Positions 42,365-47,961 of a stretch of 64,000 nucleotides of DNA are shown piece after piece; position 1 is the first letter of the stretch, and the number at the start of each line of letters is the position of its first letter. The notes under the pieces were generated by a model. It saw nothing but the letters and a program-made list of their open reading frames with translations, was not told the origin of the DNA and did no database searches. A program made the translations under genes and the position numbers. The stretch is from Polyangiaceae bacterium UTPRO1 (lineage in GTDB: Bacteria; Desulfobacterota; Binatia; UTPRO1): assembly GCA_002050235.1 (NCBI GenBank), contig MWST01000027.1, positions 25,155-89,154 of the forward strand. The letters run 5' to 3'.

Positions 42365-42567
42365 GGTGCACCTCCGGGCGGCTTCTCTGGCACGGCGGCG
42401 CGCGGCTGCCAACACGAGCCGTCGTCGCTGCCGTGGGCAGCGATCGGCGGGCCTGCGGCCGCCGGCAGCGTTGACGACGCTTGACGTCCGCCGACAGCGG
42501 GCGGCGGGCGCAAGCCGTGGCGCCGCCACGCATCCGCATCGGGAGCGCTCCTTGCTCTCTGCCGGGC

Positions 42568-43590
42568 ATGGCGAGCGATCTGGCGGTGTGGCGGCCGGAG
42601 GTCGAGGCGGCGCCGGGAGTGGCGGCGATCGTCCGTCCGACATGGGTGCGGATGGCGGAGCGCGTCGCGCCGCTCGGTGCCCGCCTCCTCGGCGGCCGGC
42701 ACTTCCGGGGCGGGGTGGAGCATGCCCTCTGCGGCAAGGTGCACGGGGCGGCAGCGCGCGGCATCCTTTGGGCCTTTGCGCCGCCGCCGGCCTTCGCGCG
42801 GGTGCGGCGCGGATGCGGCCGGCATCCGGTGGACGCCTATCGCGGCCGGGTACCGCATCTGAACGGGCTCCCGGGTGGCGGCGACACCTTGCTCCACCAC
42901 CATCGCGGCGCCGGTGCGGCGCGCGGGCTCGTCGTCGTGAGCCGCGGCGTCGGCGCGCTCGCCGACCTGGTCGCGCGCCGCCTCGCCGCCGCCCTCGTCC
43001 GCATCGGATTCGACGTCGCCGTCGTGTCTTCCGCGGGGTGCGGCCCTGGCGACGACAGGCTCTGGGCGCAGAGCATCGGTCGCGTGCTGGTGACGATCGT
43101 CCGCCGCGTGCACGCAGGCGTCGCCGCCGAGGCGTGGGCGCGTCAGCTCGGATACCGGCGCGTGCTCGCTGCCGGCGTCGGCCTCGGCGGCACGGTCACC
43201 GCACTCCTCGGAGCGACGACCGCGCGCTTCGATGCCTGCGTGCCGATCCTCGCCGGCGCCCACCCGGGAAGGCTCTGGCTGCCGCCGCGGGGATTCGCGC
43301 GAGCCGCCGACCACGCGGCGCTAGCCCGTGACGCCGTCCGCGACGCGCGGACGCTGCTTCGCCTCTTCGATCCGGTCGCACCCTGTCGTCTGCCGCCGCC
43401 GCGGCGCCGCGCCGGCTGCGCGGTCGTCGGTCTTCGCTACGACCGCCAGGTGCCGCCGAGCGACGTGCAGGCGCTCGCCGCCCACTGGAGAGCGGGCGCG
43501 GTCTGGCTCGAGCGTTCGCACATCGAGGTGCCGCTCGCGGTGCGCGCTCTCGCCGCAGTGGTGGCGCACGCCGCCGGCGTCCGCACCTGA
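42568..43590 (+). CDS. Alpha/beta-hydrolase-fold protein lacking the nucleophile Ser
   Basis: Elbow reads GVGLGG; later Asp (RYDRQVP) and His (ERSH) at the expected positions. Confidence 0.6.
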   Translation: MASDLAVWRPEVEAAPGVAAIVRPTWVRMAERVAPLGARLLGGRHFRGGVEHALCGKVHGAAARGILWAFAPPPAFARVRRGCGRHPVDAYRGRVPHLNGLPGGGDTLLHHHRGAGAARGLVVVSRGVGALADLVARRLAAALVRIGFDVAVVSSAGCGPGDDRLWAQSIGRVLVTIVRRVHAGVAAEAWARQLGYRRVLAAGVGLGGTVTALLGATTARFDACVPILAGAHPGRLWLPPRGFARAADHAALARDAVRDARTLLRLFDPVAPCRLPPPRRRAGCAVVGLRYDRQVPPSDVQALAAHWRAGAVWLERSHIEVPLAVRALAAVVAHAAGVRT

Positions 43591-43654
43591 ACGACGGATT
43601 GCGGACACCGTCGGCTTCCATTATAAGACCCCGGATTCTGCAGTTTCGCAGTGG

Positions 43655-44046
43655 TCCCCGGTAGCTCAGTTGGTAGAGCGTTCGGCTGTAGCAATGCAGC
43701 CTCGTCGGGAAACCGGCGAGTGAAAAGCGGGTGAATTCAGGGAAGCCTAAGTGCCAAGCGAGGCAGGCTGCCGAGAAGCGGTCGCGAGGGAAGCACGCCG
43801 ACGGCCGGTTGTCGGCAGCCTGCCGGGCATACGGGAACCGTGAGCCAAGCCCCCCAATGACCCGGTCGCGAGGCCGGCAGGGTGGGGGGAAGGTGCAGAG
43901 ACTAGGGAGTGACGAAAGAATAATCTCCCCGCGAGCGCCCGCCACCTACGTCCGCATGGATACGGTGATGAGATAGTCCACGCCCGTCGGAAACGGCGGG
44001 ACGACGTGTAACCGAATGGTCGCTGGTTCGAGTCCGGCCCGGGGAG
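43655..44046 (+). tRNA. tRNA-Asn(GTT) interrupted by a group I intron (exons 43655-43689 and 44009-44046)
   Basis: Spliced exons give a perfect 73-nt cloverleaf: acceptor TCCCCGG/CCGGGGA (U1-A72) plus G73, anticodon arm ttcgg-ctGT|Taa-ccgaa, T arm gctgg-ttcgagt-ccggc. Confidence 0.95.
43690..44008 (+). ncRNA. Group I self-splicing intron, 319 nt, no internal ORF
   Basis: P1 ggctgt/gcagcc with U-G at the 5' splice site; P2 with GAAA loop; P3 gcgggtg/cgcccgc; P gaattcagggaa; Q aaccgtgagc; R gtgcagagacta; S gagatagtcc; P7 gacta/tagtc; P9 with GAAA loop; P9.0 acg/cgt; terminal G. Confidence 0.94.
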
Positions 44047-44086
44047 CTATTTTTCTGTCACGCCAAGTCGCGTGACCGGATGTTGA

Positions 44087-44130
44087 ACGAGACCCCGAGG
44101 GCAGCACGCTTCTCGGGGTTTCGTCTTTCT
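44087..44130 (+). terminator. Rho-independent terminator downstream of tRNA-Asn
   Basis: Stem acgagaccccgag / ctcggggtttcgt followed by ctttct. Confidence 0.65.
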
Positions 44131-44327
44131 GGTGCCGTTATGTGGGGTTGCGCGTGTGGGTGATGTGCGCGGCAGATTTTCTGGGAGCTGCGAGGAGAGC
44201 GCTGGGAGCACGTAGTGGACGACGTTGGGGGCTCGCGGGGCGTTCTCGGCGGCGGATCGTCCTCGAGAATCAGTTTTCTCTTCGGGGTGCCGTTTTACTC
44301 GAGCGACCGGGTGTTGAACGCAGGCTC

Positions 44328-45236
44328 TCACGACTCGGGCTCGAAGTAGTCGCTGTCGATCTTCGGCACGCGCAGCGTCCAATGGCTGACGCCGACGCCG
44401 TGCTCGATCATCAGCTCTGCGAGGCGGCGACCGTCGACGAGCACGATCGAACCGGTCCGCACCTTCTCGGCCGTGGTGTACGCGTCGCCAGTGAACTTCG
44501 ACGTCGTGAGGAGCACGCCCTTGTCCGCGCCGCGCGTCGTGAGCGCGCCGATGAAGTCACGCACGACTGGGCCGCCCACGGGCTGCTGCCAGCGCTTGGC
44601 CTGAACGTAGACCTTCTGCAGGCCAAGGCGGTCGAGCGAGATGACGCCGTCGATGCCGCCGTCGCCAGAGCCGCCGACTGCCTGCAGTTCCTGGCGGCTC
44701 AGACCGTAGCCCATGGCGTGCAGCAGATCGAGGACGAGCCGCTCGAAGAAGCCGGGCGTCTCACGGCCGATGAGCTCGAGCAGCTCCGAGCCCACGCTGT
44801 CGCGGATCTCGCGCAGCGAGATTTCGATACGGTCCTCGGGCGTTGCGACGACGCTCGTCTCGGGCGAGACCTTGTCGTCGGGTTTCCCGCTGACGTCTTC
44901 CTCGTCATAGGCGTGGGCCAGCTTCGCGACGAGATCGGCGGGGAGGCCCTGCGGATATTCTTTAGCCAGGGCCAGCCCCTGCGGTGTGATCTGCCAGACG
45001 CCTCGCTGCACCGACTGTGAGAGGCCCGCGCGCTTGAGTCGATCGTGCGCCCAGCCGTTGCGGTTCGCGTAGACGGCCTGGACGCCGCTCGGCACGCGCT
45101 CGGCACGTTCATCGACGGTCAGCTCGAGCGCGTCGGCGACACCTTCGTGGGCCTCGCGCGTACGCACAGGCGTGCCTCGATCGGCGAGCAACCGGAGCAG
45201 CGGCGAGATGAAGCGGTCGAAGGACGGAACGGGCAT
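44328..45236 (-). CDS. mrr: Mrr-family modification-dependent (type IV) restriction endonuclease
   Basis: N-terminal Mrr_N (NRNGWAHDRLKRAGL..RGVWQIT); catalytic FFERLVLDLLHAMGYG, GDGGIDG, VYVQAKRW, GVLLTTSKFT. Confidence 0.95.
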   Translation of the reverse strand: MPVPSFDRFISPLLRLLADRGTPVRTREAHEGVADALELTVDERAERVPSGVQAVYANRNGWAHDRLKRAGLSQSVQRGVWQITPQGLALAKEYPQGLPADLVAKLAHAYDEEDVSGKPDDKVSPETSVVATPEDRIEISLREIRDSVGSELLELIGRETPGFFERLVLDLLHAMGYGLSRQELQAVGGSGDGGIDGVISLDRLGLQKVYVQAKRWQQPVGGPVVRDFIGALTTRGADKGVLLTTSKFTGDAYTTAEKVRTGSIVLVDGRRLAELMIEHGVGVSHWTLRVPKIDSDYFEPES

Positions 45237-45264
45237 GGCTCCCCAGCGGGTCGCATGGATTCTA

Positions 45265-45890
<626 letters not shown>

Positions 45891-45907
45891 ACGCTCCTCG
45901 GCGAGCT

Positions 45908-46324
45908 TCATTTTGCCGAAGGCCCGCAACCGGTAGGTCGGACACGCGCGCGTAGCCGATGTACGTTAGCGCGCCGACGCCTCGTAATCGGCGTCATCCG
46001 CCCTGCGTGCATCGACGGTAGCCCCCACGCCGCCCGCTGCTCCTCCCGCGTCCCCGCGCGCGCCACCGCCCGCTGCGTCCGCCCGGACATGGGCTTCCGG
46101 CCGTCGACGGCTTCGAGGCGCAGGACGGCCTCCTGCAGATCGGCTGCAGGCTGCCGGACGCCGAGGAGCTGCGTGACCTGCGCCCGGGTGCGCCGCAACT
46201 TGCGCGCGAGGGTGGCTCTGTGTGCGACCTCGCCTCGCTCGACGGTGCAGCTCCCGTCTCGGTTTTCGTGGCGGACCCGGGCGCCATCGCCGGCGCTCGT
46301 GATGACGAGCGCGCGTAGTTTCAT
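45908..46324 (-). pseudogene. Degenerate HTH protein of a type found in recombinase-carrying integrative elements
   Basis: LARKLRRTRAQVTQLL..AADLQEAVL..EEQRAAW resembles the LARxxGVTRARVTQxxxLxxLAPDIQExIL family (recalled); truncated by the IS3 IRL side. Confidence 0.45.
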
Positions 46325-46358
46325 GCGCGTGGCGCTGTTCCCGCTCGCCTGGACCGGT

Positions 46359-46447
46359 ACCTACGGCCGCATGGTGACGGTGATGAGATAGTCCACGCCC
46401 GTCGGAAACGGCGGGACGACGTGTAACCGAATGGTCGCTGGTTCGAG
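46359..46447 (+). repeat. attR-like copy of the intron 3' end plus tRNA-Asn 3' exon
   Basis: 46377-46447 identical to 43962-44032 (71 bp); the upstream 18 bp has 3 mismatches; the acceptor-stem part is degenerate. Confidence 0.95.
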
Positions 46448-46448
46448 A

Positions 46449-46478
46449 GCGGCCCCGGAGAGCGATCTCCGGGGCCGC
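46449..46478. terminator. Perfect 13-bp hairpin with GCGA loop
   Basis: gcggccccggaga-gcga-tctccggggccgc, between attR and the convergent kinase gene. Confidence 0.6.
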
Positions 46479-46515: not shown

Positions 46516-47961
46516 TCAGGTAGAACCCGGCGGCGCGTCTTGCTCGTCCCGCGGGTGCAGTAGGTCCGCGAAGAAGGCCCGGTCGGCGAGCAGCGAGGTG
46601 TCGCCGAGGAACATCTTGCCGTAGCGTTCGAAGTAGAGGAGCTGCTTGGCGAGGAGGAAGGTGCCGCGGTCGAAGGCGGTGCCGCGGCCGCCGTGGCGGG
46701 CGACGCCGACGTGGAGGGCGCGCTGCCGCTTGAGGCGCGCCAGGAACCGTCGCCACGACGGGTGCGGGGGCGGCGCTGCCGCGGGGTCGGCGACGTTGCC
46801 CTGCCAGGCGGCCAGGAACCTGCCGAGGCTCACTTCGCCGAAGGGGCGCGTCAGCATCGGTTCGACGACGCTGCGCGCGAAGGCGGCCAGGCCGTCGCGG
46901 TCGAGGCCGAGGCCGTCGCGGAGGGCGGGACCGTAGCTGGTGAAGAACTCGTCGGCGATGTCGAGCCAGGCGCTCTCGTCGCCGAGCGCGCCCGCGACCG
47001 TACGGCGCAGGAAGCGCAGCGTGCGCGCGTCGAGGCGGCCGACGATGCCCCAGTCGAGGACGCCGACGCGGCCGTCGCGGAGGACGAGGATGTTGCCGGC
47101 ATGGGTGTCGGCGTGGAAGGTGCCGTCGCGGAGCGCGGTCAGGAACCAGGCGCGCACCAACTGCTCGAGGAGCGGCCGGGCATCGAGTCCGAGCGCGGCC
47201 ATGCGGGCGCGATCGTCGATCGGCACGCCGTCGAGGAAGTCCATGACCAGTACGCGCCGGCCGGAGAGCTCTGGGTAGGGCGCGGGAATGACGATGCGGT
47301 CGAGGCGGAGCGCGTGCGCGAGCTCGCGATGGTGCTCCATGGCGCGCGCCTCGTTTTGCAGGTCGAGCTCCTCGGTGAGCTGCTCGTGGAAGCCGTCGAG
47401 CATGCGCACGAGCTGGCCGGCTTCCGGGATGCCGATGCGGAAGGCGAGGACGTCGAGGAGCGGTCCCATCAGGCGGAGATCGACGGCTATGGTCCTTTCG
47501 ATGCCGGGCCGCAGCACCTTGACCGCAACCATGCGGCCGTCGGGCAACGTCGCGCGGTGGACGACGGCCATCGACGCGCGCCCGATCGGCTCGGGATCGA
47601 ACTCGGCGAAGACGTCGGCGAGCGGGCGGCCGAGCGTCGCCTCGATCTCCGCGCGCACGTCGCCAACGGGTACCGGAGGTCCGGTGTCGAGGCACGAGCG
47701 GAACTCTTCGGCGACGCTGTCGCCGAAGACTCCCGGCGCCGAGGCGACCAACTGCCCGAACTTGACGAACGTCGCGCCGAGGGACTCGAAGAGGAGCCGC
47801 AGCGGCCGGGCGAACGCTTGCGGCTCCGTGGACCGGCGGAGGGTGCGGCGGGCGAGCGGCGGACCGAGCCGGCGCGCAGCCAGCGCCAGCATCCGGCCGC
47901 CGCGGCGGCGCAGATCGCGCCCGGCGGGCGTCGGGAGCGGCAAGGGGACGGGTCGCAGCAC
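46516..47961 (-). CDS. ABC1/UbiB (AarF) family atypical kinase
   Basis: GATFVKFGQ, PIGRASMAVVH, VAVKV, EELDLQNEA, FHADTHAGN, LDWG. Confidence 0.93.
   Translation of the reverse strand: MLRPVPLPLPTPAGRDLRRRGGRMLALAARRLGPPLARRTLRRSTEPQAFARPLRLLFESLGATFVKFGQLVASAPGVFGDSVAEEFRSCLDTGPPVPVGDVRAEIEATLGRPLADVFAEFDPEPIGRASMAVVHRATLPDGRMVAVKVLRPGIERTIAVDLRLMGPLLDVLAFRIGIPEAGQLVRMLDGFHEQLTEELDLQNEARAMEHHRELAHALRLDRIVIPAPYPELSGRRVLVMDFLDGVPIDDRARMAALGLDARPLLEQLVRAWFLTALRDGTFHADTHAGNILVLRDGRVGVLDWGIVGRLDARTLRFLRRTVAGALGDESAWLDIADEFFTSYGPALRDGLGLDRDGLAAFARSVVEPMLTRPFGEVSLGRFLAAWQGNVADPAAAPPPHPSWRRFLARLKRQRALHVGVARHGGRGTAFDRGTFLLAKQLLYFERYGKMFLGDTSLLADRAFFADLLHPRDEQDAPPGST

Follow-up and report, generated by a model that had tools for sequence, protein, structure and literature searches.

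The tRNA-Asn(GUU) gene described here lies in a 64,000-nucleotide (nt) stretch of contig MWST01000027.1 from Polyangiaceae bacterium UTPRO1, hereafter referred to as the window, and is interrupted by a 319-nt insert. We are highly confident that this insert is a genuine member of the group I intron class Asn.4Ug, with an IC3-like core plus a P7.1 hairpin, and that no tRNA-Asn(GUU) gene other than the one it interrupts is detectable in this Binatia genome. The host is an uncultured soil bacterium of the class Binatia, represented by an assembly (G000; G and L numbers are our handles for genomes and loci) of 3.8 Mb with 70% G+C and a completeness of 89%. The intron is a new lineage-level member of a class catalogued in 2020, an ordinary but solid find which leaves the knowledge of group I introns unchanged and whose value lies mainly in annotation and in the comparative set that it provides. 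The coordinates of all features are listed in Table 1.

The position of the splice junction was agreed upon by three independent sources, namely ARAGORN in intron mode, the rule of a U before the intron (U-1) and a G at its end (omega-G) together with the wobble pair in P1, and a set of intron-less orthologues. ARAGORN in intron mode, run over the whole assembly, returned the identical split (gtt with i(36,319), a 319-nt intron after position 35), and the joined exons form a 73-nt molecule called as tRNA-Asn(gtt), with a U1-A72 acceptor pair and the anticodon loop CU-GUU-AA. This call alone proves little, because dozens of chance calls arise in a genome of 70% G+C. In G004, a genome of the same genus, the two exons lie side by side at 35/36 with 97-100% identity to those of the window; BLAST gave 97% for the 5' exon against the genes of both G004 and G023, whose exons abut at this site, and 100% for the 3' exon against the 3' half of the G004 gene. 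Since the genes flanking the G004 locus (L020) are the same as those of the window, with matches to 42472-43574 and 46569-47415, this locus represents the orthologous site without the intron. The exons also abut exactly at 35/36 in G019, G023, G028, G032, G035, G036, G039 and others of the class, and the intron-less genes, L021 included, read CUGUUAA at the site that is CUGU↓...G↓UAA in the split genes (arrows mark the splice sites). The 5' exon of the window gene contributes the acceptor 5' strand, the D arm, the 5' strand of the anticodon stem and C32 U33 G34 U35; the 3' exon supplies U36 A37 A38, the 3' strand of the anticodon stem, the variable loop, the T arm, the acceptor 3' strand and G73, and CCA is absent from the gene-encoded 3' end. 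Among 31 distinct Binatia genes the tRNA helices of the split genes show full (100%) pairing, and covariation across the intron is seen at pair 27:43 (U-A to A-U). The exon and intron coordinates, the tRNA-Asn(GUU) identity and the 35/36 site proposed in the initial annotation were hence exact to the base.

The Rfam model Intron_gpI (RF00028) matched 43680-44000 of the window over the full length of the model (positions 1-253) with 49.1 bits and an E-value of 1.7e-11, against a curated cut-off of 50; the score is penalised by two inserts and by a mismatch in P4. The nine related copies tested all scored above the cut-off (60.7-83 bits), and the window intron was the sole group I candidate that this model detected in the whole genome. 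A secondary structure was drawn by hand and then tested on an alignment of the 31 Binatia genes. Overall, 98.2% of the 2374 cells were paired and 18 pairs showed changes on both sides; neither value was reached in any of 500 shuffles, and slid partners were only 35-44% paired. Compensatory changes were located in P1, P2, P5, P6a, P6b, P7.1, distal P8, P9.0 and P9, and P3, P7 and proximal P8 were uninformative for covariation because they are invariant in the alignment. The U35(43689)·G(43696) wobble that marks the 5' splice site in P1 is UG in 31 of 31 sequences, and the pair just inside the intron is A-U in eight of them and G-C in 23. Changes from G-C to A-U were observed in P2 (13 sequences) and once in P7.1 (L015), P9.0 changes from G-C to C-G in 13 sequences, P9 has two compensatory pairs, and five of the seven pairs in P6a have compensatory changes. 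P6b is missing from the second Binatia subclade of the alignment. The guanosine-binding helix P7, invariant in the 31 sequences, aligned to P7 of RF00028, and the terminal G was also present in 54 of 54 Asn genes from other phyla among the matches listed (ARAGORN parse).

A minimum free energy (MFE) fold of the intron alone, computed with ViennaRNA, found P2, P3, the P5 extension, P6a, P6b, P7.1, P8 and P9 unaided, and gained P4, P5 and most of P6 once G43840 was changed to C. The sole open reading frame (ORF) in the intron (81 amino acids, 43731-43976) had no Pfam match, and no maturase-like ORF was found in or adjoining the intron. A hidden endonuclease was ruled out on the basis of this Pfam result and of a P1 loop of only 4 nt. 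The initial annotation had named P1, P2, P3, the P/Q/R/S elements, P7, P9, P9.0, the terminal G, a P5 extension, an extended P6 and P7.1, all of which are present in the drawn structure; its view that the insert is a group I intron lacking a homing endonuclease was borne out.

With regard to subgroup, the sequence and an alignment with the Azoarcus seed showed the features of IC3, i.e. a small core with P2 and without P2.1 or P5abc. GNRA loops in L2 and L9 are likewise present together with receptor-like motifs in P8 and P5, on which they would dock; the P5 motif is a putative tetraloop receptor on account of its likeness to P5 of Azoarcus. IC3 introns have no extra helix between P7 and P3', and the window intron carries the P7.1 hairpin at this position. 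Helices P7.1 and P7.2 are typical of subgroup IA. Because P7.1 is not an IC3 feature, we describe the intron as an IC3-like core plus P7.1 and do not file it as IC3. A hairpin at the same position is found in the seed alignment in Pam37.Asn.4Ug, Dba165.Lys.2Ug and Mba55.Phe.2Ug.

A well-known counterpart for comparison is the IC3 intron of Azoarcus sp. BH72 pre-tRNA-Ile(CAU) (Aol6.Ile2.5Ug). Both are anticodon-loop introns of a bacterial tRNA without an ORF, both have GAAA-capped P2 and P9 helices and receptor motifs of the CCUAAG/UAYGG type in P5 and P8, and they are near-identical in J6/7-P7 (AAGGUG(U/C)AGAGACUA) and in J8/7-P7' (GAUAGUCC). The Azoarcus intron is inserted after U36 of a different tRNA, whereas that of the window follows U35; the former lacks a hairpin between P7 and P3' and has a short P6, whereas the latter has P7.1, a three-part P6 and the P5 extension. 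The tRNA-Leu(UAA) intron of cyanobacteria and plastids (Leu.3Ug) is likewise located in the anticodon loop and has been inherited vertically long after its loss of mobility, but it occupies a different tRNA at site 34/35 and has no P7.1 hairpin.

The class Asn.4Ug is one of 21 described from a scan of 80,413 bacterial genomes (Williams, 2020; bioRxiv 10.1101/2020.01.27.920355), with Pam37.Asn.4Ug as its seed; in the text of the preprint that was consulted, Binatia is not named as a host. Pam37.Asn.4Ug and the window intron share the host tRNA-Asn(GUU), the site CUGU↓UAA between 35 and 36, U-1 and the terminal G, the core strings GGGUGAAUUCARGGAA, GCAGAGACUA, AGCGCCCG and GAUGAGAUAGUCCAC, and a hairpin between P7 and P3' with a loop reading ...AAUAA.... 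In contrast, Pam37.Asn.4Ug carries an additional stem, placed between P1 and P2 and missing in the Binatia copies, and it differs from the latter in that they form a clade of their own on a long stem, with a P5 extension of roughly 70 nt in the window copy and three close relatives. The 5' end of Pam37.Asn.4Ug is nearly identical to loci of Phormidium and Floridaenema, so that the published exemplar is cyanobacterial and not from the Candidate Phyla Radiation (CPR).

The spread of the class was investigated in a collection of species genomes with a pattern made of strings common with Pam37.Asn.4Ug (AGAGACTA N20-50 AGCGCCCG N10-40 GATGAGATAGTCC), which gave at least 120 matches, and 114 loci were parsed. 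ARAGORN in its first parse called 54 of the 114 loci among the matches listed as tRNA-Asn with CTGT↓...G↓TAA, and a rule-based re-parse assigned 78 of the 114 to Asn.4Ug, i.e. at least 78 further genes in about 20 phyla. Acidobacteriota account for at least 14 of these, Cyanobacteriota, Nitrospirota and Pseudomonadota for at least seven each, Myxococcota and Bacillota for at least five each, and Binatota, Planctomycetota and Chloroflexota for at least three each; the remaining genes among the matches listed belong to about a dozen further phyla, including two CPR genomes, a number to be read in the light of a pattern that is biased against A+T-rich CPR genomes because it was derived from G+C-rich copies. 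In view of the publication of the class in 2020 and of this phylum range, the proposal of a rare site in a non-CPR lineage, made in the initial annotation, is untenable, and its statement that Asn/Asp 35/36 introns had been reported mainly from Patescibacteria agrees neither with the cyanobacterial exemplar nor with the two CPR genomes among the matches listed. The P7.1 hairpin, which had been taken for an extra of this copy, is common to the whole class.

A first tree gave the impression that the intron jumps between tRNA-Asn and tRNA-Thr within phyla, Binatia included; this was ruled out as an ARAGORN mis-parse. The sequence CTGT↓...(T/C)G↓TAA also permits the parse CT↓GT...↓(T/C)GTAA, which yields Thr(UGU/CGU), and similar slips give Asp, Ala and Pro. 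ARAGORN in intron mode gave the Asn.4Ug genes L049, L060, L061, L069, L101, L102, L104, L113, L121, L138, L161 and L162 as Thr(UGU/CGU) split at 33/34; the cause is the (U/C)G with which the intron ends ahead of UAA. A survey that relies on this mode would therefore create a false 'Thr' intron class. Certain Burkholderiales loci (L050, L071, L079, L084, L105 and others) were called tRNA-Gln(CUG) by ARAGORN and are better read as tRNA-Met/Ile2(CAU) split after U36 (ACUCAU↓...G↓AAUCC), the Azoarcus-type site; their introns, as matched by the scan pattern, carry the P7.1-type core.

Within Binatia, a BLAST search with the 392-nt gene against 40 relatives located the split gene in seven of eight same-genus genomes, in nine of ten genomes from other genera of the family and in one genome of a second family (G027), and an exact-pattern scan of species genomes added further copies, labelled Candidatus Binatia or 'delta proteobacterium'. 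The survey of relatives suggested by the initial annotation thus showed the split gene to recur across most of the family. A quick maximum-likelihood tree groups the Binatia copies in a single clade with a long stem and a support of 100 in the Shimodaira-Hasegawa-like approximate likelihood ratio test (SH-aLRT), and this clade is placed among the Asn.4Ug genes by deeper branches that are weak; L053, L065 and L119, labelled Binatia or delta proteobacterium, sit outside it. Found throughout most of one family and in some members of a second, and precisely absent once in the genus of the window, the intron has been inherited mostly vertically within Binatia. Peripheral loops (L5, P6b, L8) gain and lose inserts among these copies and the core stays constant. 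The P5 extension is confined in the 31-gene alignment to the window, L003, L004 and L005, the stem of the last being about 24 bp; the idea that it is a small mobile hairpin repeat was rejected, as no second copy exists in the 3.8-Mb genome. Other inserts were observed in L007 (from G006), where roughly 45 nt with repeated CGATCGATG-ACCGATCG units lie in P6b, and in L042, which has a tandem CCCACGGTGATGAG repeat in P8 (L8 insert).

Two observations concern the labels of these genomes. Other members of the GTDB genus to which the window belongs bear the NCBI labels Polyangiaceae, Thermodesulfobacteriota and delta proteobacterium. The intron of L031 (DATMAZ010000158.1), labelled Candidatus Limnocylindria (Chloroflexota), is nested inside the Binatia clade; its contig is probably mis-binned, horizontal transfer being possible.

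No other tRNA-Asn was called by ARAGORN in intron mode in the whole G000 assembly, and no other exon-like sequence was found in its 3.8 Mb except for a partial copy at 46359-46458. The initial annotation had raised the question of whether the split gene is the only one for this tRNA, and none other was found in this 89% complete genome; relatives that are 99-100% complete (G008, G009, G013) likewise have the split tRNA-Asn gene only. From this absence in both G000 and its nearly complete relatives we infer that the lineage splices the RNA of the split gene. A whole family of uncultured bacteria would then appear to depend on a ribozyme for an essential tRNA.

All of the chemistry proposed for this reaction is drawn from the established behaviour of group I introns. 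The precursor would be transcribed as a single RNA of about 390 nt, and the intron would fold into P1-P9, with the GAAA tetraloops of L2 and L9 probably docking on the receptor-like motifs in P8 and P5 in an Azoarcus-like manner. A free guanosine in P7 would attack the phosphate after U35, a position identified by the wobble pair U35·G of P1; the terminal G44008, placed by P9.0, would next occupy the same P7 pocket, and the freed 3'-OH of U35 would attack the bond before U36, so that the exons are ligated and the anticodon G34-U35-U36 is restored. The tRNA would be completed by end-trimming enzymes, with RNase P acting at the 5' end, and by the addition of CCA.

Elsewhere in the class there are signs of mobility. 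Among the matches listed, 19 of the at least 78 Asn.4Ug introns are 536-588 nt long, and most of the long introns that were translated contain an ORF of 106-146 amino acids in the P1 loop with the pattern CxxC...HH...CANCH; one of these ORFs was above Pfam cut-offs (HNH_2, 28 bits; HNH, 22.9 bits). HNH ORFs in the P1 loop were seen in L059, L083, L095, L099, L128, L134 and others, from Nitrospirota, Bacillota, Acidobacteriota, Elusimicrobiota and other phyla, and frameshifted or truncated remnants in L078, L081, L115, L132, L145 and L146. The window intron is alike in site, core and P7.1 hairpin to HNH-bearing members such as those of L059 (Nitrospira sp.), L083 (Heliobacteriaceae) and L095 (Blastocatellia), but differs from their 536-588 nt and P1-loop ORF in having a 4-nt P1 loop without an ORF; the P1 loops of the Binatia copies as a whole measure 4-9 nt and hold no ORF. 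Because intact and decayed HNH genes occur elsewhere in the class, the ORF-less Binatia copies fit a cycle of invasion, endonuclease decay and fixation or loss, and the window intron is best read as a fixed, immobile remnant of an intron formerly spread by homing. With intact HNH, decayed HNH, ORF-less and precisely absent states at one site, Asn.4Ug could aid the study of the homing cycle.

The window copy differs from those of its close relatives in an insertion of 2.3 kb directly after the tRNA, which comparison of the locus did not find in them. A 100-bp direct repeat (43944-44043 and 46359-46458; 94% identity by BLAST) marks the boundaries of the insertion and covers P8 except for the first base, P7', P9.0, P9, the terminal G and the 3' exon as far as the T loop. 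In the far copy the tRNA 3' end is short by 20 nt and is followed by a 13-bp perfect hairpin and by sequence like the native downstream region of the relatives (TTCGAGAGCGG...). No integrase was found within the insertion. If it came by site-specific recombination, the attachment site extended 65 nt into the group I intron, and a tRNA-targeting element would have adapted to an intron-bearing tRNA gene and carried a spare ribozyme piece; the loss of 20 nt in the far copy would now block clean excision. That the working ribozyme is a chimera made by a mobile element is a tentative proposal, to which we give somewhat less than even chances. Upstream of the gene no sigma-70-type promoter was found at the scan threshold, and TTGCGG, 17 nt and TATAAG, noted by eye at about 43599-43627, are a weak lead only.

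Several points weigh against the reading that we favour. In the literature searched, no experimental splicing test of any Asn.4Ug intron was found. Of the ten copies scored with RF00028, that of the window is the lowest and the only one below the cut-off, by 0.9 bit; the 95%-identical L003, at 60.7 bits, is about 11 bits above it. In P4, G43840 makes a G·G mismatch with 43740, the only unpaired cell of this helix in the 31-gene alignment, and is C in the other 30 of 30 sequences; the MFE fold loses P4 with G43840 and regains it with C, the difference being 1.9 kcal/mol. Because the genome is 89% complete, a second tRNA-Asn in its missing part is possible. On these grounds the intron family could be real and the window copy splicing-impaired or dead, through the P4 mismatch or the apparent replacement of its last 65 nt during the insertion event, with the cell making do with residual splicing or with a further tRNA-Asn encoded in the 11% of the genome that is missing from the assembly. 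In favour of such impairment are a base that no other of the 31 sequences has, in a core helix that does not otherwise vary, the lowest model score, the loss of P4 from the fold and the incomplete genome. However, a single mismatch in a GC-rich helix of 6 bp is predicted to cost only about 1.9 kcal/mol, all other core positions have the consensus base, the P8-P9 segment in the proximal repeat copy resembles that of the relatives, and the 3.8 Mb contain no other Asn-like exon. The G would be explained equally well by an error of one base in the consensus of a metagenome assembly; scans of metagenome contigs with exact patterns gave no second contig bearing the G43840 form, which may stem from such an error, be a change that the intron tolerates or be a true defect. 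We therefore consider an impaired or dead window copy unlikely.

A slightly smaller chance still is given to an intron that is not autonomous and needs a host protein in vivo (an RNA chaperone or a tRNA synthetase-like cofactor), which would make 'self-splicing' a misnomer. Some group I introns in other systems require protein cofactors, and the near-invariant 15-nt loop of P7.1 could be a protein-binding site as well as an RNA contact. Against this dependence stand the GAAA loops L2 and L9 together with the CCUA(A/C)G/UA(C/U/G)GG motifs in P5 and P8, which are like those that stabilise small Azoarcus-type introns, as does the lack of a maturase-like gene noted above. For an assembly artefact, or an unrelated element in a tRNA pseudogene, nothing was found in favour; over 30 genomes, assembled independently in different studies, contain the same split gene, compensatory changes occur in both the intron and the tRNA, and we give this explanation practically no credence. 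A genuine Asn.4Ug intron in the only detectable tRNA-Asn gene hence remains the reading that we favour.

Table 1. Features of the split tRNA-Asn gene and of the adjacent insertion (positions in the window)
Feature	Position	Strand	Details
tRNA-Asn(GUU) gene split by group I intron	43655-44046	+	Split between anticodon positions 35 and 36
5' exon, 35 nt	43655-43689	+	Reads TCCCCGGTAGCTCAGTTGGTAGAGCGTTCGGCTGT; boundaries from ARAGORN intron mode
P1, exon GGCUGU + intron A1 with UGCAGCC	43684-43701	+	31/31 sequences paired
Group I intron, 319 nt	43690-44008	+	RF00028 full-model match; covariation in 31 genes
P2, 7 bp	43702-43719	+	GAAA tetraloop 43709-43712; 100% paired
P3, 5' strand	43727-43733	+	Partner 43936-43942; 7 bp, invariant, 100% paired; recovered by MFE fold
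P4, 5' strand (P element)	43737-43742	+	Partner 43838-43843 (Q element); G43740·G43840 mismatch in window copy
P5 with CCUAAG/UACGG receptor-like motif	43746-43834	+	Encloses P5 extension; 31-gene structure
P5 extension, 13-bp perfect stem GGCAGGCUGCCGA/UCGGCAGCCUGCC + distal part	43762-43824	+	Lineage-specific insert
P6, P6a (CCCCCCA/UGGGGGG), P6b with GCGA loop	43844-43894	+	31-gene structure
P7, 5' strand GACUA (in R element)	43900-43904	+	Guanosine-binding helix; partner UAGUC 43974-43978 (S element)
P7.1 hairpin GGGAG/CUCCC, 25 nt	43905-43929	+	Near-invariant 15-nt loop UGACGAAAGAAUAAU; 31-gene structure
P8 with second receptor-like motif CCUACG/UACGG	43943-43967	+	Distal stem: 3/4 pairs with compensatory changes
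P9.0 (ACG/CGU) around P9 (7 bp)	43980-44007	+	GAAA loop 43990-43993; 31-gene structure
Terminal guanosine (omega-G) before 3' splice site	44008	+	G in 31/31 Binatia genes
3' exon, 38 nt	44009-44046	+	Reads TAACCGAATGGTCGCTGGTTCGAGTCCGGCCCGGGGAG; ends in discriminator G73
2.3-kb insertion directly after tRNA	44047-46458		Bounded by 100-bp direct repeat
Terminator-like hairpin + T-run	44087-44124	+	41 nt 3' of tRNA
Type IV Mrr restriction endonuclease gene	44328-45329	-	PADLOC mREase_IV, E 1.1e-89
ALIL frameshift pseudoknot of IS3 orfA	45445-45561		Between repeat copies
Truncated IS3 orfA	45519-45875	-	Between repeat copies
Degenerate second copy, last 65 nt of intron + 3' exon to T loop	46359-46458	+	Far boundary of insertion

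The split gene also bears on routine annotation. At normal thresholds it escaped both default ARAGORN and the Rfam model for tRNA, the latter giving 18.1 bits on the 5' half only; the initial annotation was right in expecting standard finders to overlook the gene, but the predicted misreading as Tyr(GTA) did not occur. tRNAscan-SE 2.0 is not designed for the detection of group I introns (PMC8450103). As had also been foreseen, the genome appears to be without tRNA-Asn when the split gene is overlooked (ARAGORN, whole genome). Because standard finders miss the split gene, Binatia genomes of this family will be reported to lack tRNA-Asn, and inferences on completeness or codon usage from such annotations would be wrong. 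Two further calls were made by ARAGORN in the same assembly outside the gene described here: a 95-nt tRNA with a CUA anticodon and the label 'Pyl' (G000 C24:37871-37965, outside the window), and a tRNA-like call without an assigned identity (G000 C37:86474-86561).

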